In this document: positions 32,049-59,694 of the stretch, piece by piece
Layout of the letters: each line of letters opens with the position of its first letter
Numbering within the stretch: the first letter of the stretch is position 1
Assembly: GCA_902622845.1 (NCBI GenBank)
Contig: CACNRI010000003.1
Location: forward strand, 133,859 to 197,858
Length of the DNA stretch: 64,000 nucleotides
Direction of reading: 5' to 3'
Origin: an uncultured SAR86 cluster bacterium
Lineage (GTDB): Bacteria; Pseudomonadota; Gammaproteobacteria; Magnimaribacterales; D2472
The notes under the pieces: generated by a model
The model's database searches: none
Told to the model about the DNA's origin: nothing
What the model saw: the letters and a program-made list of their open reading frames with translations, nothing else
Position numbers and translations under genes: made by a program

Positions 32049-32622
32049 AATCTATGTTTGGATCAATAATTATTTCAAAATCTCTGTCATTATCATTTAT
32101 CTCAATTTTCACAAGTTTCGGAATTATAAATGCAGCAGTTTGCCCAGCAGGCCACTCAGTGAACCATCGGTTGTCAATAAGAAACGATATTTCTACATCA
32201 TCAATATTATTGAAAATGACTGAATCTATATAATCATCATAATCATAAGGATCTGCTGTAAAGTAAACTCTTCTAATAAATTTTGTATCATCGAATAAAT
32301 ATTCAATTCTTGAGATAGACGATCTCGAACTATCAATCCTATTGATAAAACTGAGGAAAGTAATTTTCTTATCGGTATTGCTCCCTATAAAATTAGGTAG
32401 CTGATTCCCAAAGTTATCTCGCATTGGTAAATTCACTACTGACATAAGATCTCTTCTTATAGTGCTCACGCCTAAGTTAAATACTTTTATATCATCTACT
32501 TTTGATTTACTTTGATTCCTTAAATCAATTGATGATTGAAGAAAATTTGTAGAAACAATCGCAATTATTGAAAGAATAACTAAAGATATTAATACTTCTA
32601 TTAGTGTAAAACCTTTTTTCAT
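32035..32622 (-). CDS. gspJ: T2SS minor pseudopilin GspJ
   Basis: GFTLIEVL N-methylation motif. Confidence 0.9.
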   Translation of the reverse strand: MKKGFTLIEVLISLVILSIIAIVSTNFLQSSIDLRNQSKSKVDDIKVFNLGVSTIRRDLMSVVNLPMRDNFGNQLPNFIGSNTDKKITFLSFINRIDSSRSSISRIEYLFDDTKFIRRVYFTADPYDYDDYIDSVIFNNIDDVEISFLIDNRWFTEWPAGQTAAFIIPKLVKIEINDNDRDFEIIIDPNIDYVYR

Positions 32623-32985
32623 TTAATTTTTTTTTAAAAACCCCTTAGTTTCATAAATAACTTGGGAGTTATCTTTTTTAGTTATTTGTATTTGATATTC
32701 AATATAAGATTTCATTGGGGCCTCATTAAACGTTTCTTTCCACTCCCACTCATCTCCATAAAACACCAAGGTGCCGCTTCTATTTTTTTGATTAAATGGT
32801 TTTTCTAAAGTATTGATTAAAGAAATCCTGTTATTTGCTATCTCTCTAGCGATTACTCTATTTTCTAAAGAGAAGATTGATAAAGTTGTTGAGCTCAATG
32901 TCTGATAAACCGACATAACAGCGACGCTTAGTATTAAAAGCGATACCGAAACCTCTATTAAGCTAAAGCCTCTCTTAAAATTCAT
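32623..32985 (-). CDS. gspI: T2SS minor pseudopilin GspI
   Basis: GFSLIEV motif, 120 aa. Confidence 0.9.
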   Translation of the reverse strand: MNFKRGFSLIEVSVSLLILSVAVMSVYQTLSSTTLSIFSLENRVIAREIANNRISLINTLEKPFNQKNRSGTLVFYGDEWEWKETFNEAPMKSYIEYQIQITKKDNSQVIYETKGFLKKN

Positions 32986-33475
32986 CAGTTTTTAAGAATT
33001 CTCCTCCATGAGTAAGAACAAAGTTATATTTCTGATTATCATTGTAAAAAGTGAATTTTGCTCCAGTTGTTTCGCCAGATGGATAAAATAAAATATAAGG
33101 CAAATCTAAATTATCATTAGATAGCTTAAATTTAAGACCATCGCTTGTTTCTATTTCTTTTTCAAAATCAATAAATTCATTCCAAGTGTAGCTATAAATG
33201 GGTTTAGTATTTATTTGAATTTCTTCATTAGCTATTTCATAAACAGCTTGTTCATTTGTATTTGCATACCATCCTAAGACTTTTCCACGAATAATGCTTT
33301 CTTGGGAGATTTCAGAAAAGTTTTCTTCTAATGTCCTAGGCGAGTTACTAATATTAACAATATTGGTATTCAAAAGAAGTATTGATGACATCAAGCCAAC
33401 AATTACAATTACAATAAGTAATTCTATTAATGTAAATCCTGGTTTTTTATTTAAGCCAATTACCAAGGTCTGCAT
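32975..33475 (-). CDS. gspH: T2SS minor pseudopilin GspH
   Basis: GFTLIELL motif, ILFYPSGE; start likely ATG 33475 overlapping the gspG end. Confidence 0.88.
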   Translation of the reverse strand: MQTLVIGLNKKPGFTLIELLIVIVIVGLMSSILLLNTNIVNISNSPRTLEENFSEISQESIIRGKVLGWYANTNEQAVYEIANEEIQINTKPIYSYTWNEFIDFEKEIETSDGLKFKLSNDNLDLPYILFYPSGETTGAKFTFYNDNQKYNFVLTHGGEFLKTDEF

Positions 33476-33866
33476 TTTCACCTGTTCCTCCTTCCACTCC
33501 ATCAGCACCTAAAGTGTAGACATCATAGGATGAGTTTTTTAAGCCAGGATACAGATAAAGGTATTCTCTACCCCATGGATCTTGAGGGAAAGACTTTATA
33601 TATCCACCTTCAGGATAAAGTGACGGTCGTTTAAGATCTGACGGAGGAACAACTAATGACTGTATTCCTTGATCAGTAGTTGGGTAAGTTAGCTCATTAA
33701 ATTTATAAAGTTCTAGCGCTTTCTCAATTTGTGAAATATCTGCTCTTACTTTTTCTAAATTTGCTCTTTGGAGAAAAGGAGATACATTAACTGCAACTAC
33801 TGTAGCTAGTATGCCAAGTATCACAATTACTGCCATAAGCTCAATTAAAGTAAATCCTTTTTTCAT
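33447..33866 (-). CDS. gspG: T2SS major pseudopilin GspG
   Basis: GFTLIELM, YPTTDQG, DPWGREY, GADGVEGG. Confidence 0.96.
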   Translation of the reverse strand: MKKGFTLIELMAVIVILGILATVVAVNVSPFLQRANLEKVRADISQIEKALELYKFNELTYPTTDQGIQSLVVPPSDLKRPSLYPEGGYIKSFPQDPWGREYLYLYPGLKNSSYDVYTLGADGVEGGTGENADLGNWLK

Positions 33867-33868
33867 AG

Positions 33869-35062
33869 TTAATTTAATATTAGTGTGTTCATTTGCATTA
33901 TAGGAATAAGTATAGCCATAACGATTAAAAGAATAAATCCACCCATCACAATAATGATTAATGGTTCTATGAGAGATAGGACAGTTGAGCGAGTTGTTTC
34001 AATCTCAGATTTCATAAAGTTAGAAGCTTTTTTGAACATCGGAGTGAGATTGCCAGACCTGTAACCGCTGGAAATGAGTTGGTTAAAGATATCTGGAAAT
34101 ATCTGTTCGCGGGTTAAAGCACGTGAAAAATCAGAACCCTCTTTTACTGACTTTATTATTTTGTTCAGGCGATATTTAAGATAAGCATTATTCAAAACAT
34201 CAGATGTTTCTTTTAGCGCATCATCTAGAACTATTCCTGATGACATCAATAAGTACATAGTACTACTGAATCTTTCAGTCTCAGATTTTAATAAAAATGC
34301 TCCAAATATTGGAATTTTAAGAAATATTCTATGAATATTTATTGTCTTATCAGTACTTCGCAACTTCTTATAATAAAAAAAAGAAACACCTAATATCAGT
34401 AGAATAGACGGGATTATATAAATCATATTAGAAGATATATTCATTAATATTGATGTAAGTAAGGGAAGATCAACACCTGATTTAACGAATTGATTTACAA
34501 CCTGAGGCATTACAAAAGTAAGTAGTGAAATTACTACTACTATTGAAAAAGAAAAAAGAATAAACGGATATGTTAAAGCAGTACGAACTTTCTGATTAAT
34601 AGATAAACTTTCTTCAAGATAATCTGACAATGATTTAAACATCTCAACAAGTCTTCCTGAAGTATCACCAGCTTTAATTAAAGACACATATGTATTATCA
34701 AAAACTTGAGGATAAGCCTCCATAGCATTACCTAGTCTTTTGCCCTGAATTATTTCATCTCTTAAATTAAATAATATATTTTTTAAATCTTTATTTTTAA
34801 CTTGCTCAGCAGTCATTTTTAAAGCCTCATCAATTTGCGCAGCTGCCTCAAGAAGTGTTCCAATTTGCCTAGTAGCAAGAACCAAATCCTTATTTTTGAT
34901 TTTATATCTTTTGGTAGTTTGAGATTTTATTTCTTTAAGTTTGTGTGGTATTAGATTTAGACTTTTTATTTCCTTTCTTGCCAATCTTTCACTTTCGGCA
35001 TTTATAAATCCTGATTGAACCGAGCCTTCAGAATCAAAAGCCTTATAACTATACGAAGGCAT
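33869..35062 (-). CDS. gspF: T2SS inner membrane platform protein GspF
   Basis: Three TMs, ALTYP, SLIEP, AILIPI. Confidence 0.95.
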   Translation of the reverse strand: MPSYSYKAFDSEGSVQSGFINAESERLARKEIKSLNLIPHKLKEIKSQTTKRYKIKNKDLVLATRQIGTLLEAAAQIDEALKMTAEQVKNKDLKNILFNLRDEIIQGKRLGNAMEAYPQVFDNTYVSLIKAGDTSGRLVEMFKSLSDYLEESLSINQKVRTALTYPFILFSFSIVVVISLLTFVMPQVVNQFVKSGVDLPLLTSILMNISSNMIYIIPSILLILGVSFFYYKKLRSTDKTINIHRIFLKIPIFGAFLLKSETERFSSTMYLLMSSGIVLDDALKETSDVLNNAYLKYRLNKIIKSVKEGSDFSRALTREQIFPDIFNQLISSGYRSGNLTPMFKKASNFMKSEIETTRSTVLSLIEPLIIIVMGGFILLIVMAILIPIMQMNTLILN

Positions 35063-36554
35063 CTTCTTTTATATTGTTAGATCTAATGAGCTCATCACAA
35101 GACGTTATACCTTTTATAAGAAGATCTGAGCATGAAGAATTTATAGACGGAGCATTTTTAAATACATAATCCTTAATCTCATTCTCTGACTTTTCGTTAT
35201 GAATCATATCTTTAATGGTTTTATCAACATTTACGGACTCGGCAACAGCAATTCTTCCTCTGTATCCAGTACCGTTACACTTATCACAGCCCTTGTGATC
35301 ATAAACTTCAAGATTATGCTTAAGACCAAACAAATCAGCAATGTCTTTGTTAATAGTGGTTTTAACTTTGCAGCTATCACATAACCTTCTTACAAGTCTT
35401 TGAGAAATTACTGTTTTCAAACTTGAAGATATTAAAAATGATTCTATTCCCATATCTCTCAACCTAGTTATAGCTCCAACAGCGCTATTTGTGTGTACTG
35501 TTGATAAAACTAGATGGCCCGTTAAGCTAGCCTGAATAGCAATTTGGGCAGTTTCTGTGTCTCTTATTTCTCCCACCATCACGACATCAGGATCTTGCCT
35601 GAGCATTGCGCGTAATCCCGTAGCGAAAGAGTAACCAGTCTTTTGATTAACCTGTGTTTGGCCAATGCCCTTCAGGGTATATTCAATTGGATCCTCAACA
35701 GTAAGAATATTTTGAGACGAGTCACTAAGATCTCTAAGACCAGCATAAAGTGTTGTAGTTTTTCCTGAACCTGTTGGTCCAGTGACTAGAATAATACCTT
35801 CTGATTCACTTAAAGACTTCTTGTAGGTTGAAAGTATTGTTCGCGGTAAACCAAGATCATTAATATTGATTTGTGCTGATTGTTTATCTAAGAGTCTTAA
35901 TACAATTCTTTCTCCATATGTAGATGGTAAAGTTGAAACACGAACATCAACATTTTTATCTCCTAGTGATAATGAAACTCTTCCATCCTGTGGCAACCTC
36001 CTTTCAGAAATATCAAGTTTTGAAATTATCTTTAATCTGGCAATAATTAATGGTGTGAGTCGAGGATCTTGAGATAAAACTTCTTGCAGTATTCCATCTA
36101 TCCTATATCTAACTGATAAAGAATCTTCATAGGGCTCAAAATGAATATCAGATGCTCTTAACTTAATTGCCTGACTTAAAATACCATTTATAAGCTTTAT
36201 GATTGGGGCATCATTGCTCCCGCTTAACAGATCTTCTGTAGCTGTAATTGTTCCTGCGAAAGTTTTAAGATCAAAATTATCTTTAAGTTCTTCTGAAAGT
36301 TCTGAGTTTTGAGAAATTACAGAAAAATTTGACGTTATAAGGCTATTTAACTCCTCAGCATTACAAATTTCTACTTCGAATGATTTACCTATATATCTTA
36401 ATAGCTCCTGATGTATATCAAAGCTTAGCTCTGAAGTTGAATAAATCTTAATTTCACCATTTTTATCTATACCAAAGATATTATTCTGTTTTACGAAGTC
36501 GTATGGAAGAATGCTTGATATTTCAGCCATAACATCATTGGGTATATCGGACAT
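35049..36554 (-). CDS. gspE: T2SS ATPase GspE
   Basis: GPTGSGKTTT, EDPIEY, RQDPDVVMVGEIRD, tetracysteine motif. Confidence 0.96.
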   Translation of the reverse strand: MSDIPNDVMAEISSILPYDFVKQNNIFGIDKNGEIKIYSTSELSFDIHQELLRYIGKSFEVEICNAEELNSLITSNFSVISQNSELSEELKDNFDLKTFAGTITATEDLLSGSNDAPIIKLINGILSQAIKLRASDIHFEPYEDSLSVRYRIDGILQEVLSQDPRLTPLIIARLKIISKLDISERRLPQDGRVSLSLGDKNVDVRVSTLPSTYGERIVLRLLDKQSAQININDLGLPRTILSTYKKSLSESEGIILVTGPTGSGKTTTLYAGLRDLSDSSQNILTVEDPIEYTLKGIGQTQVNQKTGYSFATGLRAMLRQDPDVVMVGEIRDTETAQIAIQASLTGHLVLSTVHTNSAVGAITRLRDMGIESFLISSSLKTVISQRLVRRLCDSCKVKTTINKDIADLFGLKHNLEVYDHKGCDKCNGTGYRGRIAVAESVNVDKTIKDMIHNEKSENEIKDYVFKNAPSINSSCSDLLIKGITSCDELIRSNNIKEDAFV

Positions 36555-38402
36555 CTATTTATCTTTTGTGAGGTCGATTAACTTAGATTGCTGCTTAAGT
36601 AACTGTTCTGCTTTTATGAAGTTATACTTTTCAGTCGAAATCTGAGAAACCGATTCTGAGTCAACTAAAATCTTAGGTCTTAAAAAGACCATTAAATTCT
36701 TTTTAACTTTTGATTCACTGGATGATTGAAATAATTTACCTAAAACTGGAATTGAACCTAGGACAGGAACTCTCTGAATATCTTCCTGTATATCTTCATC
36801 AACCAAACCACCCAAAACAATAATTTGATTGTTATCTACCAATACAGTTGTTTCAATTGTTCTTTTATTTGTAATTAAATCAGTAGTCCCGGTTAAAGGG
36901 CCAGCGACACCAGATACTTCCTGTTTTATCTCCAAGATAACTGAATTTCCCTCATTAATTTGAGGCTTTACCGACAGCTTTATACCTACCTCTTCTCTTG
37001 AGGTTGTCCTGAAGGGATTTGTATTATTTGAACCTAAACTTTCACCTGTTGTTATAGGAATTTCCTGACCAATAACAGTAGAAGCTTCCTCATTGTCCAT
37101 TGCCAATAATGATGTAGTAGTCAAGATATTGGAATTCTTATCTGCATCTATGGCATTAATGATCGCTATCATGCTGTCATCATCCTCTGATATTCTTCCA
37201 ATACCTGCAATTATTCCTTGAGAGTTTAAAAGTGAATTAGCTGCAATATTTGAAAAATTTGCATTATCACCTGATTCAATCGCAGATCCTGTTAAACCTA
37301 ACAGATCAGGTCCTGTTCCGTTCTGAAATCTAGTAATCCCAATAGGTATTTCTCCATCCTCTGCACCGGCAAAGATAGTTTCTACACCCAAACTTCTTGC
37401 GGCTGTTTCTGAAAGCTCAACGACTATAGCTTCTACTAATACTTGAGCCCTTCTAATATCAAGTTTAGATATAAGATTTTTTATAGTTGCTATATTTGAT
37501 TCATCACTGGACACTACGACAGAATTAGTTGGTGAATGGTGTGTAACAATTGGTTTTTCAGATTCTGAAGAAATAAATCTTGAAGCTATAGAACTAACTA
37601 TTCCAGCAACCTCCTCAGCATTGGCATATTTAAGGTATATAACAGCAACTGAACCTTCACTAATTGCATCAGCATCTAATTGCTTGAGTGTTTCTTTAAT
37701 TATGTTTGTTGTAATTGAGTTGGCAGATACTATTACAGAATTTGATGCACTAAAGGAAATTGCAACAAAATTATTAATTGTTGGATTGTTTTGAGCTTTA
37801 AGTTTTTCTAAAATTCTTACCGCCTCAACAGATGAAAGATTTTTTAAATCTATAATGGAGACAGCTGCGGTATTATCTTGATCAAGGGCTAATATTAAAT
37901 CAGCTATTCTTTCAACATTACTTGCTCTATCAACAATTAAAATAGAATTTATAGACGCAATGCTTGAAACGTTTGCTTGTCTTCCAGCAATAGGTTTGAG
38001 CATTGGCAATAACTCAATTGAAGATCGGTTATTAAGTCCAATAATTCTTGTTACAAACTCCCCATCAGAATCAGCTGAATTACTATCTCTAGTTGCTTCA
38101 TTTTCTGGAACGATTCTTACAAAATTATCATCATTTATAGCGCTAAATCCATTTACTTGAATAGTTCTTAAATACACATCCCAAACTTCATCTGATGAGA
38201 GTGATGAATTAGAAAAAATAGTCACTTTACCTTTGACTCTTGGATCAAGAATGATTGTTTTTCTTGAAAAATTTGCAATATCTTGGGTGACTTTTTTAAT
38301 ATCTACATCTTCATAATTAAGAATAAATGATTCTTGGGAAAAAGCACTTAGGCTAATAAGAGTTAAATTAAATATAAAGATTTTTTTTATAATACTAATC
38401 AT
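36555..38402 (-). CDS. gspD: T2SS secretin GspD
   Basis: LDPRVKGKVT N0 domain, DIRRAQVLVEAIVVE, VPVLGSIPVLGKLF secretin motif; short C-terminus. Confidence 0.96.
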   Translation of the reverse strand: MISIIKKIFIFNLTLISLSAFSQESFILNYEDVDIKKVTQDIANFSRKTIILDPRVKGKVTIFSNSSLSSDEVWDVYLRTIQVNGFSAINDDNFVRIVPENEATRDSNSADSDGEFVTRIIGLNNRSSIELLPMLKPIAGRQANVSSIASINSILIVDRASNVERIADLILALDQDNTAAVSIIDLKNLSSVEAVRILEKLKAQNNPTINNFVAISFSASNSVIVSANSITTNIIKETLKQLDADAISEGSVAVIYLKYANAEEVAGIVSSIASRFISSESEKPIVTHHSPTNSVVVSSDESNIATIKNLISKLDIRRAQVLVEAIVVELSETAARSLGVETIFAGAEDGEIPIGITRFQNGTGPDLLGLTGSAIESGDNANFSNIAANSLLNSQGIIAGIGRISEDDDSMIAIINAIDADKNSNILTTTSLLAMDNEEASTVIGQEIPITTGESLGSNNTNPFRTTSREEVGIKLSVKPQINEGNSVILEIKQEVSGVAGPLTGTTDLITNKRTIETTVLVDNNQIIVLGGLVDEDIQEDIQRVPVLGSIPVLGKLFQSSSESKVKKNLMVFLRPKILVDSESVSQISTEKYNFIKAEQLLKQQSKLIDLTKDK

Positions 38403-38775
38403 TTTTAAACCTATTAATTATTGTAAATTCTTTACCCTGAAATTCAAAAATAATTATGTCATTGTTAACTTTAACAAGCTTATATTTATTTTCGAGCAAT
38501 TCATTTAGCTGAACAACATATTCCTTTCCTCCTTTTTTAACAATTACTGAGGTATTAATATCTCCTAATCTAACTGCAGCAAGCTCATAATTAAAGCTTG
38601 TAGGAGGAGTATTTGAAATCTGATTTGTTGAAACTTGTTTTATCTCCATTGGTCTTACAATAGAAAAGGCCTCAGTCTTGGTGGAGTTAATTAGCATGTA
38701 CATATTTATAAAAAGATACAGAGCAATAGATACAGCCAGTAAATATATTAAATATTTAAGATTAATTTTATTCAT
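38395..38775 (-). CDS. gspC: minimal GspC-like protein (TM plus HR domain)
   Basis: N-terminal TM, short beta-rich domain, first gene of the gsp operon; no PDZ domain. Confidence 0.65.
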   Translation of the reverse strand: MNKINLKYLIYLLAVSIALYLFINMYMLINSTKTEAFSIVRPMEIKQVSTNQISNTPPTSFNYELAAVRLGDINTSVIVKKGGKEYVVQLNELLENKYKLVKVNNDIIIFEFQGKEFTIINRFKND

Positions 38776-38829: not shown

Positions 38830-41445
38830 CTAAAAGGAGATTTTAAATCCTAGCGAGGCTGATGTTCCAAGATCATATTGATCATATATTGCAATATTTC
38901 TCATTGATGCATAGTACTCCTCATCTAGTAAATTTCTTAGCTCAAGAGATAGTTTTAACTCAAATTCAGGGTATGAATAAATTTTTGAGAATGCAAAATC
39001 AACTAATAGTGGAGGTTCTTCAATAATATCCGGTAAAACATCAATACCTCTAGCTCTTACCCTATCACTAACATAGTTAACAATTAGGGTTGCTTGAGTT
39101 TGGTTTTGTAAATTATCTAAACCGATTTGAAAGTTTGCAATTGTATCTGATTGACCCTGCAATCTGGTATCTCTGCCATTCGCAAGAAGACTTTGAGCAT
39201 CTACAACAGTACCAATACTGTTTATATAGGTATCTCCAGGATTTACAATTACTTCAGATTCAGTTTCCGTATAATTAAACTTAACAAGTAAGTCGTTAGG
39301 TGAATCCATAATTGCTTCGAATACTTGCTCATATTCGATTTCAAATCCATTGATTTCAGCCAGAGGAACGTTTTGGTAAGAGGTAATAATTAAATCACCT
39401 GACTCATTTACAGTTTCTTCGATAGGATTAAGAATTTCCTTTGAGAAAATACCAGCTGTAAAAAACTGATTAAAGCCAAAATAGTATTCAAGTCTTAAAT
39501 CAATATTGTCAATCTCACTATTTTCTAAATATAGTGAGCCAGCTATTACTCTGTCAGTATCAACATCTATAAACAGCGTTGGAGATAGTTCCCTGAAGGT
39601 TGGCCTAGCAATTGTCTGAGAAGCGCCCAATCTAATTTGAAGGTTTTCATCAAATTCAGGGAGATATGTTAATGTCATTGAAGGTAGCTGATAATCTTCT
39701 TCTATTGATTTATCAATTAAGGAATCAACACCTGAAAATAAATCATATGTATTAACTTGCTGCAGACCTTCTTCTTGTCTAACTCCAGCAGTAAATTCAA
39801 AATTATCTCCAATTGATGATTCAACACTAATGTATGCTGAATCAATTTCCAATAATCCTAAGTACCCAGCTGGCGATGAACTTGCAGTATTCTCGATTAC
39901 CAGCAACCTGTTAGGATCAAAGTTTTGGTCAGCAAAGATATAATCTATTCTATTATCTAAGCCATCTTGAGGTAATGGACCACCAGCAGCCAGAAATCTA
40001 AAGCTTCTAACTTCGGCTGATCTATCATTTTCAACGCTTTCAACTCCAGTTCTTAAAAATGTTGACTCACCAAGGGGTATCTCTAGATCTAAAACAACAT
40101 TTGTATTTTGATCTTGGACCATACTAAATTGGGTTTGGTTCCTACCTGTATTAACATCATATAAGTAGACTCCGTCTTCATCTCCATCTTCATAGAAAGC
40201 AACTCTTTCATATGGAGAATCTCTTTCAGCCCTTCCATCACCCAAACTTACATCTAAAGTCCAGTTATTTTCAAAAGTCTTATTATAATTAAACTGATGA
40301 TTTATTAGCTCTCTTTCATAAAATTCTAGATAATCTTCACGGACATCAGCTGAATCACTTGAATCATATCCTTGGAGGATACGTGCTTCTTTTGTTCCTT
40401 TATGAATGTATAGCCCAGTATATTTTATTTCAGATGAATCAGTTTCAACACCAACAACACCCATTGCATATGCTGTAACATCATTTGATGTACTTTTAAA
40501 AGTTTTGTCATTTTGAACAACAACATCTACAGTACCATCACCTTGGTTTTGTAAATCACCAGTTTGCCTGATTCCTTCTTGTGTATCCCATGAACTTTTT
40601 AAACCTGCAGTAAACATGAAGCCCATTGTTGCACTTGGGTCATCAATAATTTTATCAATTCCTAAACCATCAAGACTATCTCCATAAGTCAAACTATAAG
40701 ATTGATCTAGAGGAACATCTCCTGATTGTAAAACCCATAGTTTTGAATTTTCAAAATCTCGACCAAAATTAGCTAATTGCGTTGAATTAAAGTTGGACCT
40801 ATCAAGTTTAAGATTGTTATTAATAGCTCTCTTAATAGTATCTGGTATAGCTCTAGTCCCATCATCATAACCAAAACTATCATCGCTACCACCGTCATAC
40901 ATTAGTCCATCATCTTTTAACGACGTAGCAGAGTTATAACCTGCTGAAGCTGAAAATTCAAGGATCCTATCTAATGGAACAGCTTTTGTATTTATCTCAA
41001 TTATACCTCCTCCAAACTCACCAGGCATGTCAGCTGAATAGGTTTTTTGCACTACAGATGACTCAATGATACTTGTAGGAAAAAGATCAAGAGGTACGAC
41101 TCTCCTGAGTGGTTCTGGACTAGGTAGATTAAGACCATTAAGTGAAGCAGATGAATATCTGTCACCTAAACCTCTTACATATACATATTTACCTCGCACT
41201 AGACTAAGACCCGTAAGTCTTGTAAGGGCGATAGCAATATTGTCATCACCAGTTCTTTCGATTTCTGATGAATCTAATATTGCTGAAATCTCGGATGTAT
41301 CTCTTTTCTCATCTGGTATAAAAGATCCACTTACTACCACTTCTTCAATTTCTTGAGCATTGATAAACAATGGAGAAACTATTATGAATGGTAAAGCAAA
41401 CTTTAAAAAAACCCAGATTTTGTTTGTTGTTTTTGTTGATTTCAT
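38830..41445 (-). CDS. TonB-dependent receptor
   Basis: EEVVVSG TonB box, VYVRGLGDRYS...LPSPEPLRRVVPLDLFP plug, C-terminal Phe; start ATG 41445 after GGAG. Confidence 0.93.
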   Translation of the reverse strand: MKSTKTTNKIWVFLKFALPFIIVSPLFINAQEIEEVVVSGSFIPDEKRDTSEISAILDSSEIERTGDDNIAIALTRLTGLSLVRGKYVYVRGLGDRYSSASLNGLNLPSPEPLRRVVPLDLFPTSIIESSVVQKTYSADMPGEFGGGIIEINTKAVPLDRILEFSASAGYNSATSLKDDGLMYDGGSDDSFGYDDGTRAIPDTIKRAINNNLKLDRSNFNSTQLANFGRDFENSKLWVLQSGDVPLDQSYSLTYGDSLDGLGIDKIIDDPSATMGFMFTAGLKSSWDTQEGIRQTGDLQNQGDGTVDVVVQNDKTFKSTSNDVTAYAMGVVGVETDSSEIKYTGLYIHKGTKEARILQGYDSSDSADVREDYLEFYERELINHQFNYNKTFENNWTLDVSLGDGRAERDSPYERVAFYEDGDEDGVYLYDVNTGRNQTQFSMVQDQNTNVVLDLEIPLGESTFLRTGVESVENDRSAEVRSFRFLAAGGPLPQDGLDNRIDYIFADQNFDPNRLLVIENTASSSPAGYLGLLEIDSAYISVESSIGDNFEFTAGVRQEEGLQQVNTYDLFSGVDSLIDKSIEEDYQLPSMTLTYLPEFDENLQIRLGASQTIARPTFRELSPTLFIDVDTDRVIAGSLYLENSEIDNIDLRLEYYFGFNQFFTAGIFSKEILNPIEETVNESGDLIITSYQNVPLAEINGFEIEYEQVFEAIMDSPNDLLVKFNYTETESEVIVNPGDTYINSIGTVVDAQSLLANGRDTRLQGQSDTIANFQIGLDNLQNQTQATLIVNYVSDRVRARGIDVLPDIIEEPPLLVDFAFSKIYSYPEFELKLSLELRNLLDEEYYASMRNIAIYDQYDLGTSASLGFKISF

Positions 41446-41475
41446 TTTTACTCCCAAATAGGTTTTATAAAGTTA

Positions 41476-44406
41476 TTAGTTAAGTTTTATTGATCCAGGT
41501 ACTGTCCATCCTTTGTACCAATTATCAGTCGCTCCACTAACTGCACCTATGTATGTAGTTTCTTCAAAAAATCCATCGGCATTGTATATTGCAGGAACAG
41601 CTGTAACCGCAGCACCACTTTCTGCAGAACCGTTCACAACTCCACTAAGTGTATTTACATAAGTACCACCACCAGATGTAGCTGCATATAAGTTGGTATC
41701 AGGAGATTCCTTAACAATTGCCTCAATTGCTGATACTGCAACACCGTCGTTAGTTTTAATAAATCCTGGGCAATCAAATGCTACAGAGTTCATAGAGAAA
41801 TTAGGTGTTATGGCGCCATCAAGAGGTGTTTCTGTTTTAGTAGTCTCTATACAATTTGTTGATTTGCCTGTAACTTCGTTAAGAACAGCAGCAACTCCAT
41901 TATAATATTGACCTGATACACCCTCTTTTAACTTAAATATATCGTCATGACCTCTACTTACAAAAGTAAAGTTAGCAACAATTGGATTTGATCTAGGCTC
42001 ACTTAAATAACCAACAGCACTATCACTGTTAACATTATCTGATTCGACAATATGATCACCTTTATCATTAGCCTGTTGAACTATAACGTATTGAAGTCTT
42101 CCTTGATAACCCCAGTCAATATCTAAGTTATCATCATCTGCTCCTGTACAGATCAGATGTTTTACATCAACTGTTCCACCAAAGAACTCGACGCAATCAT
42201 CTGCGTTGTTATGAACTTGAATGTATTCAACCGAAGTACCACTCCCAACACCACCAAAAGTGATTCCATTGAGCTCATTACCTGGGAATACCTCATAACC
42301 TGCATACTGAACTCTTAGATATTTGAGTGCTCCACTACTATCAGTTGGTATTTCACCTCCCATTACATCTCCGGCTGATCCTTCAACCTCTCTCTCACAT
42401 GGAGTGGTTCTAACTCCTGTAGAAGCGTATGAACACTTATTAATTGGTGATTGACCAAGAATGACTAAGCCTCCCCAAAGTCCTCGTGTTAAGTTTACGT
42501 CTGCTTGACCAAGAATATCTTGTCTTCCAGTCATCACGATTGGAGCAGATCTTGTTCCTACAGCATTAATATCCGATCCTCTCATAATTACTAAATAATC
42601 ATTACCTGATTCACCAAAAACTGTTACACCAGGATTAATAGTTAATGTAGCTGAGTCGCCGTCTGAAGCAGTACCATCTGCTCCAACATCAACACCAATT
42701 TGAACTTTACCATCAAGCTTATAATAGTTTCCTGCTACTAGAGTTAAATCATCTGTTATAACTCCACTTAAGTCACAAACCTTTCTACCTAAAAGAATTT
42801 CAGATTCAAGAGTTCCAGCGGGACACTCAGGATCGGTAAATAGACCAACAGTCCAACCTGCAGCCCAGTTATTTTCTGCATCTGATCCAGGTGAAAAAGC
42901 ACCAACATAATCAGTTGCTGAAAACCAATTATTAACAACGTAATTCCCATCATCGTATCCAGGACATAGTTCTGTTAAAGCTCCGGCTGCATGAGTTCCA
43001 ACCGCACACATATCGTCAATTTCTGATATCGAAAATGCGCTTGGAACAGCAGATTCAGTATCACCCAAGAAGTATGTATCCACCATTGTATTCGACCCAA
43101 AGTTTAAATTAGTCGATCTTGATGCAAGTGATGCTGCAAATTCTGCATCTGTTGCTGCATCAAACTTTACAGGAAAGTCTGTTTCATTGCCCGAATCAAA
43201 AAATATTGAATGATGAGCAATTTTGTCTGTTAATGCACCATCTTGAATAGTTTCTAAAAATGTACCTTCAACGAGATTCTGTGATGCTTGGTTTACAACA
43301 ATACCATTGATATAAATTCCAGATACACCCTCTTTATACTTAAGTGGTTCGTCAGCTCCTCCTCCAATAAAGGTAAAGTTGGCAACCATGGGTTGTGATC
43401 TGGGCTCTGTTAAGTAACCTACTGCTGCATCAGAATTTGTATTGTCTGATTCTACAATATGATCTCCTGCGCCAACATTTTGTTTAACAACAACAAATTG
43501 CATTTTTCCTTGATAACCCCAATCGATATCAAGATTATCATCACCTGCATTAGTGCAAACTAAATGTTTTACGTTTACAGTTCCACCAAAAAACTCTACG
43601 CAATCATCTTGGTTGTTATGAACTTGAACATAGTCCACCTTTGTTCCATAACCAACACCGCCAAAGGTAATACCATTTAATTCATTGCCTGGGAATATTT
43701 CTTTACCTGCGTATTCAACTCTAACGAAGTTTAAAACTCCAGAGTTATCATCTGGAGAAGCTCCACCCATAATAGCAGTAGTAGAACCTTCAACCACTCT
43801 CTCGCAAGCAGCAGTTCCTCTAACATCATTACTACACTTATTAATTGGCGCTTTACCTAAAATAACTATTCCACCCCAAAGACCACTCGCACTGTCTGGG
43901 TTAGTTAAAGATCCATCAATCGCAGAAGCTGCAGTAAATCTAATAGGTTTGGATCTGGTTCCGTTGGCAACAATTTTTGACCCTCTTTGAACAACAATAT
44001 AATCATCAGGTGTTTTTTGAGCAAGCGTTACGCCAGCTGGAATTGTTAATGTTGCAGCGACTCCTCCAGATTTTGTTCCATCTCCACCCATATCGACACC
44101 AACATCAACTAAGCCGGATAGACGATACATTACATCAGTTGTAAGTGTTAAATCTGAAGTTATTGGACCAACAATTGCGCATAATGTATTACCACCAAGA
44201 GTTGAATCATTAGAAATGAATGGAGAAGAAGGACAAGTTCCCGTCAGTAAATTACTATTACCGCCCCCACCACCGCCATCATCACTTGGGGGTGATAATG
44301 GACCCAGCTCACCAGGAGATGCAATATTAGTATCACCACCTCCACACGAAGCTATAATGAAAATTGAAAAAATTAAAAATAAGTTTTTAGTTGATTTTAG
44401 GCACAT
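41476..44406 (-). CDS. 976-aa outer-membrane lipoprotein made of two tandem ~460-aa predicted beta-helix modules (ElpS-like)
   Basis: Lipobox IASC (Cys21), AGAGG SD, Gly/Pro linker, two homologous modules each with YAG..FPGNELNGITFGGVG...DDCVEFFGGTV...DDNLDIDWGYQG. Confidence 0.85.
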   Translation of the reverse strand: MCLKSTKNLFLIFSIFIIASCGGGDTNIASPGELGPLSPPSDDGGGGGGNSNLLTGTCPSSPFISNDSTLGGNTLCAIVGPITSDLTLTTDVMYRLSGLVDVGVDMGGDGTKSGGVAATLTIPAGVTLAQKTPDDYIVVQRGSKIVANGTRSKPIRFTAASAIDGSLTNPDSASGLWGGIVILGKAPINKCSNDVRGTAACERVVEGSTTAIMGGASPDDNSGVLNFVRVEYAGKEIFPGNELNGITFGGVGYGTKVDYVQVHNNQDDCVEFFGGTVNVKHLVCTNAGDDNLDIDWGYQGKMQFVVVKQNVGAGDHIVESDNTNSDAAVGYLTEPRSQPMVANFTFIGGGADEPLKYKEGVSGIYINGIVVNQASQNLVEGTFLETIQDGALTDKIAHHSIFFDSGNETDFPVKFDAATDAEFAASLASRSTNLNFGSNTMVDTYFLGDTESAVPSAFSISEIDDMCAVGTHAAGALTELCPGYDDGNYVVNNWFSATDYVGAFSPGSDAENNWAAGWTVGLFTDPECPAGTLESEILLGRKVCDLSGVITDDLTLVAGNYYKLDGKVQIGVDVGADGTASDGDSATLTINPGVTVFGESGNDYLVIMRGSDINAVGTRSAPIVMTGRQDILGQADVNLTRGLWGGLVILGQSPINKCSYASTGVRTTPCEREVEGSAGDVMGGEIPTDSSGALKYLRVQYAGYEVFPGNELNGITFGGVGSGTSVEYIQVHNNADDCVEFFGGTVDVKHLICTGADDDNLDIDWGYQGRLQYVIVQQANDKGDHIVESDNVNSDSAVGYLSEPRSNPIVANFTFVSRGHDDIFKLKEGVSGQYYNGVAAVLNEVTGKSTNCIETTKTETPLDGAITPNFSMNSVAFDCPGFIKTNDGVAVSAIEAIVKESPDTNLYAATSGGGTYVNTLSGVVNGSAESGAAVTAVPAIYNADGFFEETTYIGAVSGATDNWYKGWTVPGSIKLN

Positions 44407-44555
44407 AAGAATTCCTCTTAAAAAAATTAATTAATATATTTAATGATTTCTTAGTGAACTTTAGATTAGTTTTATGAAAAATTTAATTTACGTTTTGGAA
44501 ACAAAATCAATACGATTTTATGACAAAAATATATTTTTTGTGACGAGAATGTTAA

Positions 44556-46319
44556 CTATTTGCTATGTAAAGGAAGAGTAAACCAAAAAATACTGCCATT
44601 TTTTTTGTTGCGATTTCTAGCACCATACTTGCCTCCCAAACTAATAGCTAAATTCTTTACAATAGCAAGACCAAGACCACTTCCAGATTTTTGACTTGCT
44701 CTGGCTTCAGGAGTTCTATAAAAACGATTAAATATAAAGTCTCTATCAGCATCGCTTATACCGGTACCTGAATCCTTAACTGAAATTTTAATAGAATCTT
44801 CAATAACTTTAGTGGTTATCTTTACTTCACCCCCGTTATTAGCCTTTGAATACTTAATTGCATTATCAAGAAGATTTGTAAGAATTCTCTCTATTGCTGC
44901 TTTATCCCCTAAAACATGAGGGCAATTACATTTATCAAATCTAATCTCAATGCCTTTATTTTTAGCAGATGTATAATGAGATCTATTGACGGTGTTAATT
45001 ATTTCACAAACATCTAATTCTTTAAGATCTAAATGCAATTCACCGTAGTCTATCCTTGATAAATCTATCAAATCACTTACCAAACCAGAAATCCTCTCTG
45101 CATTATGCATAATTGCTTTTGAAAAAACTTTGGCATCTTTTTTATTGTCTATTGCTCCCTCTAGTAATGTTTCAGCATTAGCAAATATGACACTTACAGG
45201 AGTTCTTAGCTCATGCGAAAGATTAGATATAAAATCTCTACGCATTGATGCATTCTCTCTTAATTGGGTAACATCATGAACAACGAGGATATACTCGTTA
45301 GTAGTTTTTGCTCTATTCATAGAACCAAGTATCCATTTAACATCACCATTTTTAAGTTCTATTTGAAACTCATAATCGAATCTTCCTTCCTTATCAACAT
45401 TTTCAAACATATTCTTAAGTGCTTTTATATTTAAATCTCTTATATTTTTCTTTACTGAGGAGCTAATTTCTAAGATTCTTAGAATGCTATCGTTTTCATA
45501 AGTGATTTTTCCGTCATTATCAGTAACAAAGACTCCTTCACCTAAATTATCTAACACTGATCCAAATTGATCTCTTTGTTTAGCGATCATGCTAATTTGG
45601 GTTCTTAAATTCTTAGATATCTCAGAGATATCTCTTGCAACCGACCCAATTTCATCAGATCTTTGTGTCGGTAGAGCCTTCAAGTTCTTTTTTTTCTGAT
45701 CTTTTAATAGTCCTCTAGTTGCATTCTCAAGCTCTCTTAAGTTATTCCATGTAAAATTGGCAGCAATGGCGCTTGAAAAGAAAGCTGCAATAAGTCCAAC
45801 AATTGCAATCAGAGTTACAGAAAGTGATAGACCATCGAATGCTCCTTGAACATAGGTATAAGGAACTGCAATTCGAATAAAACCAACACCCTCTTGACCT
45901 TTCAAAGCCAAATATAGCAATTCCTTATTAACTGTATCACTGTATCTAATCGACCACCCAACATTATTGAGCTTTGCATCAATAATTTCAGGCCTATTGG
46001 AATGATTTTCTACAACACTGATTTGACTAGTTGAAAGATTTGAATCTCCTAAAACTTCACCACTGTCTTTGATAATTGTAACTCGAGAGTCAATAGATTC
46101 TCCAATTCTGTCTGCAACGATATCAGCTTTTTCTATTGAATCTAATTTTGAGACTGGGCCGATCGAAATACTTGCTAATTCTGCTTGTTTTCTTAATTCA
46201 AGAACAATCTGATTTTCAAGAGTTTTTGATAAATCTCTTTCGGCTACTATATAAGAAAGGAAAATTCCTACAAAAAATATTCCAAAAACGATTAAAAAGA
46301 TTTGGGATCGAATACCCAT
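44556..46319 (-). CDS. PhoR-like sensor histidine kinase (periplasmic sensor, HAMP, PAS, HisKA, HATPase)
   Basis: SHELRTP H box, NLLDNAIKY, DSGTGI, GSGLGL; two TMs flanking ENHSNRPEI...RYSDT sensor domain. Confidence 0.85.
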   Translation of the reverse strand: MGIRSQIFLIVFGIFFVGIFLSYIVAERDLSKTLENQIVLELRKQAELASISIGPVSKLDSIEKADIVADRIGESIDSRVTIIKDSGEVLGDSNLSTSQISVVENHSNRPEIIDAKLNNVGWSIRYSDTVNKELLYLALKGQEGVGFIRIAVPYTYVQGAFDGLSLSVTLIAIVGLIAAFFSSAIAANFTWNNLRELENATRGLLKDQKKKNLKALPTQRSDEIGSVARDISEISKNLRTQISMIAKQRDQFGSVLDNLGEGVFVTDNDGKITYENDSILRILEISSSVKKNIRDLNIKALKNMFENVDKEGRFDYEFQIELKNGDVKWILGSMNRAKTTNEYILVVHDVTQLRENASMRRDFISNLSHELRTPVSVIFANAETLLEGAIDNKKDAKVFSKAIMHNAERISGLVSDLIDLSRIDYGELHLDLKELDVCEIINTVNRSHYTSAKNKGIEIRFDKCNCPHVLGDKAAIERILTNLLDNAIKYSKANNGGEVKITTKVIEDSIKISVKDSGTGISDADRDFIFNRFYRTPEARASQKSGSGLGLAIVKNLAISLGGKYGARNRNKKNGSIFWFTLPLHSK

Positions 46320-46322
46320 TAT

Positions 46323-47021
46323 TTAATCGGGGTTTCTTGAAAACCTGTAGCCAACACCCCGTATGGTTTGAACATGTTTACCCATAACGCCCATTTTTTC
46401 ACGAAGTCTTTTAACATGAGTGTCAACAGTTCTGGTGGTGATGTGAGCTGAATAACCCCATACATCTGAAAGGAGCTGATCCCTTGTCTGTACTCTTCCT
46501 CTTCTATCTAGAAGATGTTTAAGTAATTTAAATTCTAATGCGGTTAGAATTATTTCATCATCATTAATAAAAACCTCATGAGAATCCTCATTTATCGAAA
46601 GAATTCCAAATGTTTCGATTTTAGATGATGTGTTTTGAGTCATATCTTTTGAATTTCTTTTTAAGATAGCTTTTATACGAAGCATTAGCTCCCTCACACT
46701 GAAAGGCTTGGTTACATAATCATCAGCACCTAATTCAAATCCAACAACCTTATCTACTTCATCATCTTTTGCAGTGACTATAATTATTGGAATATCGCTA
46801 TAAGCATTTGAAGATTTGAGTTTCTTACAAAAATCTAGTCCAGATCCATCTGGGAGCATAAGATCAAGGATGATCAAAGAAATATTATTAGAAGAAATAT
46901 ATGATTCGGCCTCAGTTAAATTTAGTGCACTTAGGGGTTTTAAACCTTCATTAGCAATATTATATGAAACAGTTTTATTTATATCAGGTTCATCTTCTAC
47001 TACAAGTATGTGGTGGGACAT
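46323..47021 (-). CDS. OmpR/PhoB family response regulator (probable phosphate regulon regulator)
   Basis: VVEDE, LDLMLP, ADDYVTKPF, winged helix TRTVDTHVKRLREK...RGVGY. Confidence 0.9.
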   Translation of the reverse strand: MSHHILVVEDEPDINKTVSYNIANEGLKPLSALNLTEAESYISSNNISLIILDLMLPDGSGLDFCKKLKSSNAYSDIPIIIVTAKDDEVDKVVGFELGADDYVTKPFSVRELMLRIKAILKRNSKDMTQNTSSKIETFGILSINEDSHEVFINDDEIILTALEFKLLKHLLDRRGRVQTRDQLLSDVWGYSAHITTRTVDTHVKRLREKMGVMGKHVQTIRGVGYRFSRNPD

Positions 47022-57163: not shown

Positions 57164-57577
57164 CTACTTAAGAACAATAACTTTACCTTTGAATGTTTTA
57201 TCACAATAACCTCTATAGAGATTAGCTAGATGTGATTTTCTATTTTCAGATAAATAATTAACCTTTAGGTCGCAGGTTAATGAAGGATCTATAAGTCCAT
57301 TATTTGAAAACTGCAAATAGTCGGAATACATTCCAAAGAGAACAACATTGTGGTGGTCTTTAGAGATATCATCCCTAATATAAATTGAAGCTTTTTTATC
57401 ATTTATAAAACATCCCACCGACCCTTTTGGACAAACTGAGGTTACAAGATCATTATCGTAAATAACCTCAATTGGTTTTGCATCCAGATCAAGCATGTTT
57501 TTAGCCTCCTCTAGAACAGTATCTGCACTAATAAATAGAGCAAACGATGAAGTGATTAAAAAATAAAATTTTTTCAT
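57164..57577 (-). CDS. secreted hypothetical protein, 137 aa, four Cys
   Basis: GGAGA SD, signal peptide, strong upstream promoter. Confidence 0.75.
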   Translation of the reverse strand: MKKFYFLITSSFALFISADTVLEEAKNMLDLDAKPIEVIYDNDLVTSVCPKGSVGCFINDKKASIYIRDDISKDHHNVVLFGMYSDYLQFSNNGLIDPSLTCDLKVNYLSENRKSHLANLYRGYCDKTFKGKVIVLK

Positions 57578-57586
57578 GTTTCTCTC

Positions 57587-57637
57587 CTGTCATATTAATG
57601 TAACATAAATGTAACATATAAGACACATTTTAGACAC
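57587..57637 (+). repeat. five tandem 11-bp-phased Pho-box-like half-sites
   Basis: CTGTCAT-atta-ATGTAAC-ataa-ATGTAAC-atat-AAGACAC-attt-TAGACAC starting at 57587, 57598, 57609, 57620, 57631. Confidence 0.75.
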
Positions 57638-57664: not shown

Positions 57665-58552
57665 TTAAATATCTTCAAGTAAGAATGGAGCTGCGGCTTG
57701 AATCATTTTTGAGTTCTCATGGGCTGCATTTTTGACAACTTGCAACCGCCATCTAAATGGCATATCTAAAGAATCTGCAATGAGAACATTTCTTTCAAAA
57801 TAACGAATACCCCTTTGAAATCTATTATTGCCCTGCTCTTTTGCTCCTTTGTCATTTCTTAATGAGCCATCATTAGGGTCTGTATCCTCATCACCAAGCA
57901 TTATTGCTCCTTTGACAGATAAGAACCATTTAAGTCTATCTTCAGATATAGGCATATCTTGTACACCATAAGGATAATTAATATCTTTTAAAAAGGTATA
58001 CCATCCAGCATTGGCCATAACTGCTTTTTCAGCCCTAGTATCCTGACCAAATAAAAGATATCTATGCACAAACTGTGATCCTCCTGAATGACCATAAATT
58101 CTATATGAGTTCTCCTGAATATCGAATTTAGACCTAAAATAATCAAATATTAAACTGATTGAATCACTGAGAGAGTTGCTGGGATTATTTTGAGGTTCTA
58201 AACAATATCCTGAATATTCATATTCACAACCTTTTCCTTGAGCAAGTTTTTTATCGACGACAAGAGAGTTATAAGATGGAAAAGCTGCTTTATCAAACTT
58301 TGGCGCAATCAGAATAATATTTTTATTATTCGTATATTCATACCATTTTGTAAAATATGACTCGGCTGTCCTTGATGCGCCATGAATAACAAAAAGGACT
58401 TTAGTATCCTCATTAACCTTCTCTGGCAGCGAATAAAAGATTTCTAAATCTGGTTTTGACCAAAGTGAGAACGTTAACTTATTGAAGTTGTCTGCCAAAG
58501 AAGAAAAAGAGATAAATAAGCAAACTATAGAAAAATACAATTTTATGCGCAT
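57665..58552 (-). CDS. secreted alpha/beta serine hydrolase, PahZ1 (polyaspartate hydrolase-1)-like
   Basis: LFVIHG, YGHSGGSQFVHRY nucleophile elbow, ANAGWYT, PYG, LGDED, H near C-terminus; start at ATG 58552 (MRIKLYF). Confidence 0.75.
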   Translation of the reverse strand: MRIKLYFSIVCLFISFSSLADNFNKLTFSLWSKPDLEIFYSLPEKVNEDTKVLFVIHGASRTAESYFTKWYEYTNNKNIILIAPKFDKAAFPSYNSLVVDKKLAQGKGCEYEYSGYCLEPQNNPSNSLSDSISLIFDYFRSKFDIQENSYRIYGHSGGSQFVHRYLLFGQDTRAEKAVMANAGWYTFLKDINYPYGVQDMPISEDRLKWFLSVKGAIMLGDEDTDPNDGSLRNDKGAKEQGNNRFQRGIRYFERNVLIADSLDMPFRWRLQVVKNAAHENSKMIQAAAPFLLEDI

Positions 58553-58590
58553 ATATGCATAATAAAGCAAATAATAATTATTTACACACA

Positions 58591-59694
58591 ATGATCTTTG
58601 GTAATTTATCTATCAAAGCGATTCATGAATCGCCCTACAAGTTTGTAATTTCATCCAGTGGCGGAGGAACTAATGCAATTTCTGCGTTAATGGGTGTACC
58701 AGGTGCAAGCCAATCTATTTTAGAGTCTTATGTGCCCTACTCGAGGGAATCTCTAGATATTTATTTAAATAAAAAACCTGATCATTATTGTTCGCAAGCA
58801 ACATCACTTCATATGGCATCATTGGCATATAAGAAAGCGTTAAAGATATCCGATATTGATAAAAAATACCTATTTGGTATCGCTGTAACAGCCTCTTTGA
58901 AAAGTAATTACAATAAGCTTGGTGAGCATAGATTCCACATCGCCTTACAAAACGAGAAACAAACTGTAGTCATCAACTGTGTTCTTGAAAAAAATAAGCG
59001 CTCTCGTGAAGAGGAAGAAAATTTATTATCAACATTTATATTAAATTTAATATCAAAGTCTTGTGCTTTAGAGTTTGAATATCCTCAAATATCTGACGAG
59101 ATAGAAATTAGTGAAGTTCATGGAGAAAAAGATTGGATTGACCTGATTGATGATAAGGTCGGCTTTATCTCCAATACAGCAAACAAACCAGAATTAATAT
59201 TTCCCGGATCATTCAATCCTCTTCATAAAGGTCATCTTAAAATGAAAGAGGTCGCAGAAAGGAAAACTGGAATGGATCTATATTATGAAATCTGTATTGA
59301 TAATGTTGATAAGCCGCCATTAACTTTCTTTGAAATCTCAAACACAATCAATCAGTTTGAAAATGATTCCTGGGTTTTAACAAAGGCTGGCAGGTTTATT
59401 GATAAAGCCAAATTGTTCGAAAATGCTACTTTTGTGATTGGTTATGACACCCTAAGAAGATTATTTAATGAAAAGTATTATGAAAACTCAAAAATCATGA
59501 AGGAAAATCTAATGATCTTTGATGACTTCAATATAAACTTCCTGGTATTTGGGAGAAAGGATTTTGATAAATTTAGATCTCTTGAAGATGTTGATATACC
59601 AGCGGAATTAAAACCAAGATTTACTGGTTTCGATGAAGATACATTCAGAGATGACATATCGTCATCAGAAATAAGGAAAAAAGAATTAGATTAA
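58591..59694 (+). CDS. CinA-like domain fused to an HxGH nucleotidyltransferase domain
   Basis: GGG...GVPGASQSILESYVPYS N-domain; FPGSFNPLHKGH and FVIGYDT...ISSSEIR C-domain; start at ATG 58591. Confidence 0.8.
   Translation: MIFGNLSIKAIHESPYKFVISSSGGGTNAISALMGVPGASQSILESYVPYSRESLDIYLNKKPDHYCSQATSLHMASLAYKKALKISDIDKKYLFGIAVTASLKSNYNKLGEHRFHIALQNEKQTVVINCVLEKNKRSREEEENLLSTFILNLISKSCALEFEYPQISDEIEISEVHGEKDWIDLIDDKVGFISNTANKPELIFPGSFNPLHKGHLKMKEVAERKTGMDLYYEICIDNVDKPPLTFFEISNTINQFENDSWVLTKAGRFIDKAKLFENATFVIGYDTLRRLFNEKYYENSKIMKENLMIFDDFNINFLVFGRKDFDKFRSLEDVDIPAELKPRFTGFDEDTFRDDISSSEIRKKELD

Follow-up and report, generated by a model that had tools for sequence, protein, structure and literature searches.

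A Cache-type PhoR-like kinase and a PhoB-like regulator as the very probable Pho system of a SAR86 bacterium without Pst and PhoU

How PhoR perceives phosphate is debated in Escherichia coli and Salmonella, where a transporter conformation relayed by PhoU is weighed against an intracellular signal, and the sole alternative mechanism known to us is the reading of wall teichoic acid intermediates in Bacillus subtilis. Few bacterial groups in surface seawater are as abundant as SAR86, and over wide parts of the ocean growth is limited by phosphorus. The two-component pair described here, a PhoR-like sensor histidine kinase with a periplasmic Cache domain and a PhoB-like response regulator, lies at positions 44556-47021 of a 64,000-nucleotide stretch (the window, meaning that whole stretch) from an uncultured SAR86 cluster bacterium. 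Judged from its sequence and its genomic setting, the pair is very probably the Pho regulator of SAR86.

Among the described systems, B. subtilis PhoR is built like the SAR86 kinase, running from a transmembrane (TM) helix through an extracytoplasmic PAS/Cache-like domain and a second TM helix to HAMP, PAS, DHp and CA domains, and with PhoP it forms, like the SAR86 genes, an OmpR-family pair, that of B. subtilis controlling the phosphate-starvation response (PMC6232261). B. subtilis was also the sole bacterial control genome lacking a PhoU match, as the SAR86 source genome does. It differs in possessing PstSCAB, in the marginal sequence similarity between the two sensor domains, and in sensing wall teichoic acid intermediates through its cytoplasmic PAS domain (PMC6232261), a signal that cannot exist in a Gram-negative cell. 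E. coli PhoR shares the cytoplasmic PAS-DHp-CA part, and the E. coli Pho box, like the SAR86 motif, consists of direct repeats phased at 11 bp, but the E. coli kinase has no sizable periplasmic domain and is under PhoU/PstB control (PMC6232261, PMC11389368). A full-length alignment is obtained with the ~590-aa Cache-type PhoR kinases (K07636) of Myxococcales, Magnetococcales and Desulfobacter, whose sensor signature, R...GDS...NHxxRPE...RxSxT...YxA...R, is identical to that of SAR86; two gammaproteobacterial examples of these kinases head pstSCAB-phoU operons, whereas the source genome has neither Pst nor PhoU. The likeness to WalK/VicK is limited to the sensor fold, and the source organism is Gram-negative. 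On the regulator side, the top full-length match in the PDB is Mycobacterium tuberculosis RegX3, which we take to be a phosphate-responsive regulator of mycobacteria. Its kinase, SenX3, is not known to carry a Cache sensor domain and relies on both Pst and the PhoU-like PhoY proteins. Collectively, these comparisons suggest that the SAR86 pair would work like PhoBR/PhoPR, with its kinase belonging to a large, annotated and experimentally unstudied Cache-type PhoR family. A literature search found no experimental work on the sensor domain of that family, and nothing on phosphate signalling in SAR86 except transcript surveys.

An original prediction, made from the sequence of the window alone, had placed the two open reading frames (ORFs) of the pair correctly, and the four peptide strings that it quoted all occur in the translations, two in the kinase (from residues 104 and 121) and two in the regulator (from residues 173 and 195). 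The genes and their parts are as follows.

46323-47021, minus strand: PhoB-like OmpR-family response regulator of 232 aa (Pfam Response_reg and Trans_reg_C), with the receiver at residues 5-116, the phospho-acceptor D53 and the winged helix at residues 155-227.
44556-46319, minus strand: Cache-type PhoR-like sensor histidine kinase of 587 aa.
46245-46301, minus strand: kinase TM1, residues 7-25 (hydropathy scan).
45819-46241, minus strand: periplasmic single-Cache (PDC) sensor domain of the kinase, residues 27-167, 141 aa (Pfam, AlphaFold2, Foldseek).
45762-45818, minus strand: kinase TM2, residues 168-186 (hydropathy scan).
45600-45761, minus strand: HAMP-like linker, residues 187-240, with DEIG at residue 222 (motif).
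45264-45560, minus strand: cytoplasmic PAS domain, residues 254-352 (Pfam PAS_9 and PAS, E ~1e-4).
44565-45245, minus strand: HisKA, residues 359-426 (H369), and HATPase_c, residues 471-585 (Pfam, motifs).

The kinase follows the order TM, single Cache (sCache), TM, HAMP-like linker, PAS, HisKA and HATPase, so that the two TM helices, the periplasmic domain and the PAS domain of the original prediction are recovered, while its HAMP domain is recovered only in a looser form. Specifically, the sensor loop matches Pfam sCache_like at 29.4-29.6 bits, over the cut-off of 27, the PAS domain scores narrowly under the Pfam gathering scores, and HisKA and HATPase_c match strongly, with the H-box histidine H369 and the N, G1 and G2 boxes all found. 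Pfam HAMP gives no match in the 587-aa kinase even at E<=1, and weak to strong matches in its homologues; on these homologues and the DEIG motif, the linker is classed only as HAMP-like.

The sensor loop, modelled with AlphaFold2 from a 12-sequence alignment, folds confidently as a PDC/Cache domain (pLDDT 87), and the nearest structures to this model in Foldseek are DctB, the WalK extracellular domain, KinD, B. subtilis PhoR and CitA/DcuS. A PDB profile search with the same domain returned a single and marginal match, to the B. subtilis PhoR sensor 3CWF (E=0.87). Ten polar sensor residues, R79, D92, H106, R109, E111, R125, S127, T129, Y136 and R149, are invariant across 19 sequences from SAR86, Desulfobacter, Myxococcales, Magnetococcales and the pst-linked gammaproteobacterial kinases, and this invariance suggests an anionic ligand. 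The modelled fold resembles that of the carboxylate sensors DctB, CitA and DcuS, and by analogy its Arg/His residues may play a comparable anion-binding part.

Searches of the source genome (a 1.19-Mb assembly in 9 contigs, 91% complete) found no PhoU, no PhoU_div and no PstS, PstC, PstA or PstB. Because the genome is without Pst and PhoU, sensing independent of both is forced: the signalling of the pair is firmly predicted to be Pst- and PhoU-independent, as had been tentatively proposed for Pst, and the E. coli route from transporter conformation via PhoU to the PAS domain is firmly judged impossible here. Across the order, pstB scores over the cut-off in 11 of 112 genomes, with a contig-end fragment in a twelfth (G102), and phoU was found in 0 of the 41 genomes searched. 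The regulator is the sole OmpR-type regulator in the source genome, and the Cache-type kinase is one of its two histidine kinases. The other is a 1001-aa hybrid kinase that, together with two receiver-domain proteins, occupies positions 164582-167567 of contig C2, outside the window; apart from the pair, the genome has no signalling cluster but this one, which is kept across the order. In family f1, to which the window belongs, pstSCAB occurs as a patchy four-gene cassette without phoU, placed directly by tRNA genes at differing chromosomal positions (L103 4081-8696; L104 7273-11919; L105 8090-12695; L106 7559-12205). This cassette is 64-73% identical to that of family f2, and from its distribution it looks like a mobile island.

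The identification as a Pho regulator draws on gene neighbourhood and on promoter motifs, and also on the pair being the sole OmpR-type system of the genome, on its best family, PDB and E. coli paralogue matches, and on the Cache-type pairs that head pstSCAB-phoU operons in two other gammaproteobacteria. Fifteen orthologous loci were compared, with all four SAR86 families sampled, and in these the pair always adjoins ppx-ppk2-pitA, receptor-phytase genes, the type II secretion system (T2SS) genes or porin-pstSCAB. The gene order regulator-kinase-ppx-ppk2-pitA is found in three of the four families, and the pair adjoins porin-pstSCAB in G028, G034 and G029. In families f1 and f4 the pair stands immediately before gspC-M; in f2 and f3 there is no T2SS beside it, and ppx-ppk2-pitA or pstSCAB is found instead.

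A lineage-specific repeat pattern, YGTMAY-N5-YGTMAY (TGTMAC direct repeats with 11-bp spacing), has four strict matches in the 1.19-Mb genome, three of which are intergenic and within the window. Two upstream regions of the window are of note.

25801-25817, minus strand: Pho-box-like repeat CGTCAC-atatt-TGTAAC, 44 bp upstream of the receptor-phytase operon.
44496-44550, minus strand: candidate regulator-binding region upstream of the lipoprotein-receptor operon (read from sequence).

The second region reads CGTCAC, then TTGTCAT-aaaa-TCGTATT-gatt-TTGTTTC, and is 11-bp phased but a poorer match than the other sites. Strict repeats are also found upstream of the receptor-phytase orthologue of G031, the pstS gene of G028 and the pst-linked porin gene of G029, which together with the window's own amounts to four observed at the compared promoters vs 0.002 expected; upstream of the orthologous operon of G037 there is a near-match. 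By its sequence the TGTMAC repeat represents a variant form of the Pho box of E. coli and is the predicted target of the regulator. A TGTCAT/TGTAAC array with 11-bp spacing at 57577-57636, between the ORFs 57164-57577 and 57665-58591, holds two of the four strict two-unit matches of the genome, and in a three-unit motif scan it is the sole intergenic array with an intact motif; a further three-unit hit, the fourth, lies on contig 1 and spans a gene junction. The regulator is thus linked both to genes of phosphate uptake and storage and to predicted Pho-box-like sites, and it is because phosphate-gene synteny is order-wide and TGTMAC repeats stand before those genes that the pair is assigned, with the high but qualified confidence given above, as the Pho regulator.

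Three results weigh against this assignment. Neither protein attains the curated cut-off of any PhoB/PhoR model; the best tree puts the regulator outside the well-supported gammaproteobacterial PhoB clade (99/99); and a scan of the window for the E. coli Pho box (TGTCAT-N5-TGTCAT, <=3 mismatches) is not enriched, with 75 matches vs 96 expected. For the regulator, the best NCBIfam model is PhoB TIGR02154 at 234.3 bits, under its cut-off of 296.2, while PhoB is also the best match among five E. coli regulators (42% identity, 184 bits), and RegX3 is the best full-length PDB match by far (172 bits, the next reaching 139 bits). For the kinase, the best NCBIfam model is PnpS, the pneumococcal phosphate kinase, at 275 bits vs a cut-off of 400; phoR_proteo TIGR02966 gives 208.6 bits (cut-off 334.2), PRK11006 gives 147 (390), and the Bacteroidota PhoR model NF053855 gives 191.8 bits (500), aligning residues 5-582 with positions 5-581 of its 583. 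Among four E. coli kinases PhoR is the closest, and near-identical kinases, at 98-99% identity, come from SAR86 cluster single-cell genomes. The low scores are shared within the lineage: pst-adjacent SAR86 regulator orthologues reach 236-256 bits on the PhoB model, likewise under the cut-off, and small-genome gammaproteobacteria reach 245-295 bits. Since the pst-linked SAR86 pairs score alike and nest with the window's pair, the regulators in one clade (99/98) and the kinases in another (100/94), the sub-cut-off scores are read, from these sequence comparisons, as a property of an AT-rich, fast-evolving lineage as a whole.

The same scores allow a different function to be considered, namely that the pair senses something other than phosphate, whether as an envelope sensor akin to WalK, as a metabolic sensor akin to CreBC or as a regulator dedicated to the T2SS. 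In favour of such a role, all PhoB/PhoR models stay below their cut-offs while the WalK/VicK model aligns along the full length of the kinase at 240 bits, CreB is the third-best NCBIfam model for the regulator, WalK extracellular domains are among the best Foldseek matches, and the position directly before gspC-M in f1 and f4 would suit a secretion regulator. The WalK score is, however, one third of its cut-off of 725, and CreC scores 140 bits vs 356; the trees place none of E. coli CreC, BaeS and EnvZ within the SAR86 kinase clade; the f2 and f3 pairs stand beside ppx-ppk2-pitA or pstSCAB with no adjoining T2SS; the promoter motif is common to pstS; and in other gammaproteobacteria there are pstSCAB-phoU operons headed by a kinase of this type. 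A non-phosphate role is improbable on this evidence, and CreBC, WalRK and T2SS-specific identities were set aside on scores, trees and synteny.

Phylogenetic placement separates the kinase from its gammaproteobacterial counterparts. In a tree built from the C-terminal, cytoplasmic 345 aa alone, with the sensor domain left out, the SAR86 kinases are sister to long Cache-type kinases including those of Myxococcales and Magnetococcales with support 100/99, the nine long-type representatives having been picked by sensor-domain similarity and the sampling being biased to that extent. In the approximately unbiased (AU) test, a joint clade of SAR86 kinases and gammaproteobacterial PhoR is rejected (delta lnL 47.5, p=0.0047). 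Because the sensor-less core still groups with the long Cache-type kinases, the whole kinase is, by sequence, of a foreign type, rather than a gammaproteobacterial PhoR with an added domain. PhoR stands beside PhoB in 27 of 29 other gammaproteobacterial genomes, and a periplasmic domain was found in none of these 27; outside the order, just 4 of the 396 gammaproteobacterial genomes searched match the sensor-domain profile. These figures, with the AU result, uphold the non-enteric character that had been proposed for the kinase.

A global search with the sensor-domain profile yields 9365 clusters (50% identity level), most of them made up of ~590-aa kinases, and the named relatives of the kinase are from Myxococcales/'Deltaproteobacteria', Magnetococcales and, over the full length, Desulfobacter latus. 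The kinase accordingly classifies as a member of a widespread long Cache-type PhoR family that is rare in Gammaproteobacteria, to which it conforms in architecture, sensor signature and core clustering. Set against proteobacterial PhoR, it matches in the PAS-DHp-CA part and departs in model score, in the TM hairpin, in Pst/PhoU partners and in shared ancestry. Of the resemblance to deltaproteobacterial and Firmicutes PhoP/PhoR given in the original prediction, the deltaproteobacterial half is borne out by Desulfobacter latus and the Myxococcales clade, and the Firmicutes half comes down to a marginal match with the B. subtilis PhoR sensor. The expected separation of both proteins from gammaproteobacterial PhoBR likewise holds for one of them: the kinase is apart from gammaproteobacterial PhoR, while a placement of the regulator as sister to gammaproteobacterial PhoB is compatible with the data (AU p=0.64), and the regulator could be no more than a PhoB that has diverged.

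Outside the order, the same Cache-type kinase with a PhoB-like regulator heads a pstSCAB-phoU operon in two unrelated gammaproteobacteria. One of them, G292, a gammaproteobacterium of another family, carries a canonical PhoBR as well as a Cache-type pair (L083 138-7737; L086 109-2105), the operon of the latter comprising the regulator, the kinase, a 314-aa protein, pstS, pstC, pstA, pstB and phoU.

The foreign affinity of the kinase core bears on when the gene was acquired. A recent horizontal acquisition by the source genome or its genus would agree with the grouping of the core among non-gammaproteobacterial kinases, and the neighbouring lipoprotein-receptor cassette does show transfer inside the order. 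The locus, however, has a G+C content of 0.34-0.35, the same as the window; of 103 genomes from the order, 85 hold orthologues of the pair, at conserved positions; and the long kinase form occurs in all four SAR86 families, with the regulator and kinase trees following the families. In the genome the pair is single-copy, and across the order it is syntenic and monophyletic. The horizontal acquisition by the source genome that had originally been proposed is contradicted by these observations, and a recent acquisition is highly improbable. The trees indicate that the ancestor of the SAR86 order already had the long-type kinase and that its descent from then on was vertical; any transfer is ancient rather than recent because the type is found in all four families, and would be older than the SAR86 radiation.

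Taken as a whole, the full explanation that we regard as probable is an ancestral Cache-type Pho system, independent of Pst and PhoU, for which an anionic periplasmic input is preferred at a less than even likelihood. A low phosphorus signal would lead to autophosphorylation of the kinase at H369 and to phosphate transfer from the kinase to D53 of the regulator, which would then bind the 11-bp-phased TGTMAC direct repeats, a Pho-box variant, and turn on phosphorus-scavenging operons. The candidate targets are the receptor-phytase and lipoprotein-receptor operons and, in relatives possessing them, pstS and the linked porin gene. The input would be an anionic phosphorus-related ligand, orthophosphate being the simplest, received at the invariant Arg/His/Ser/Thr/Tyr cluster of the Cache domain, and binding of this ligand would push the kinase into phosphatase mode.

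Natural variation of the kinase bears on this last step. Four kinase architectures occur in the order at one locus, namely a 577-591 aa long form, a 448-451 aa TM-hairpin form, a 402 aa form and a 358-367 aa soluble form; the long form is the majority, with 65 of the 91 kinases classed, and the PAS domain is retained in 16 of 16 SAR86 kinases examined, spanning all four architectures. The following loci carry variant orthologues of the kinase gene at 44556-46319.

L028 9543-10751: variant orthologue of the kinase gene.
L038 9080-10432: variant orthologue of the kinase gene.
L037 9437-10513: variant orthologue of the kinase gene.

The 402-aa kinase has a TM hairpin, is 67-68% identical to the 587-aa kinase in the shared part and nests in the genus of the window, which points to a recent deletion within that genus. 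The soluble form of ~360 aa adjoins porin-pstSCAB-PhoU_div-pitA. As a rule-like substitute for Pst, the long sensor form was rejected, since pstSCAB is found alongside the long kinase in five genomes and is missing from many genomes with a short one.

Several of these observations count against a periplasmic ligand as the essential input. The 402-aa form, with sensor and linker deleted, is found in five genomes of the window's own genus that are still without Pst, and the 450-aa TM-hairpin form in 16 f3 genomes, 12 of them without Pst; five long-kinase genomes do carry pstSCAB, and outside the order kinases of this type occur together with pstSCAB-phoU. The long kinase and Pst absence are only weakly associated (Fisher p=0.07), among genomes that are phylogenetically non-independent. 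In B. subtilis, moreover, the extracytoplasmic PAS-like domain of PhoR is dispensable for Pho induction (PMC6232261).

These points lend themselves to an account in which the pair is a Pho regulator that reads its signal intracellularly, through the cytoplasmic PAS domain or the nearby PitA, with the Cache domain accessory or modulatory and answering to some other stimulus. Such an account fits the persistence of the deletion, TM-hairpin and soluble kinases in SAR86 genomes without Pst, the universal retention of PAS among the kinases examined, and the linkage of pitA to the pair across the order; B. subtilis PhoR senses via its intracellular PAS (PMC6232261), and an intracellular phosphorus signal has been proposed for Salmonella PhoR (PMC11389368). 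It is opposed by the ten polar sensor residues, whose invariance from SAR86 to Magnetococcales argues for a conserved, selected ligand, and by the long form being the commonest. Intracellular reading is accordingly a serious minority possibility. Direct periplasmic sensing of a phosphorus-related anion by the Cache domain is itself held tentatively, its likelihood falling somewhat short of even, and the narrower proposal, that the Arg/His/Arg/Arg/Ser/Thr/Tyr/Arg cluster directly binds extracytoplasmic orthophosphate or a small phosphorylated compound, is on present indications rather unlikely.

The pair belongs to a larger set of genes in the window, as listed below.

22163-23344 (phytase) and 23244-25757 (TonB receptor), minus strand: one operon (gene families by profile).
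25888-26472, plus strand: 194-aa ORF.
26474-27739, minus strand: PitA-type transporter (Pfam).
27832-28677, plus strand: PPK2 (Pfam).
28674-29534, plus strand: Ppx/GppA (Pfam).
29524-38775: T2SS genes.
38830-41457, minus strand: TonB-dependent receptor.
41476-44406, minus strand: duplicated surface lipoprotein, 976 aa.
56189: PhoD-like phosphatase.

With its phytase, TonB receptors, lipoprotein, T2SS, polyphosphate enzymes, PitA and two-component pair, the window is a phosphorus island. The 194-aa ORF, situated between the receptor-phytase promoter and pitA, has no Pfam or NCBIfam match and stands beside pitA in relatives too, at 39-41% identity.

The lipoprotein-receptor operon at 38830-44406, a likely target of the regulator from its upstream sequence, has a history of its own. 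In the lineage of the window it is inserted between the kinase gene and gspC, and it is missing from this place in most relatives, where gspC directly follows the kinase gene. It shares 74-85% identity with the cassettes of another family in G026 and G032 (L038 13192-18885; L041 13426-19064), where the adjoining regulator is just 52-54% identical to that of the window and the kinase ~31%. Because the identity of the cassette is far above that of regulator and kinase, and because it is mostly absent at this position, it looks like an insertion exchanged horizontally inside the order.

SAR86 thus keeps a PhoBR-type switch, yet ~90% of its genomes are without Pst and none of the 41 searched has PhoU. 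The interest of the system lies in this combination: the lineage is hugely abundant in the ocean, the canonical sensing partners are completely absent, and the sensor domain comes in several natural variants. If the Cache domain does bind phosphate directly, the long PhoR family would constitute a one-protein external phosphate sensor, in SAR86 the sole phosphate input; a long-standing question would be settled for a very large kinase family, and the 587-, 450-, 402- and 360-aa variants would form a natural series for dissecting how PhoR reads phosphate. If it does not, the annotation would still be useful, with the pair read as the master regulator of the window's phosphorus-scavenging island.

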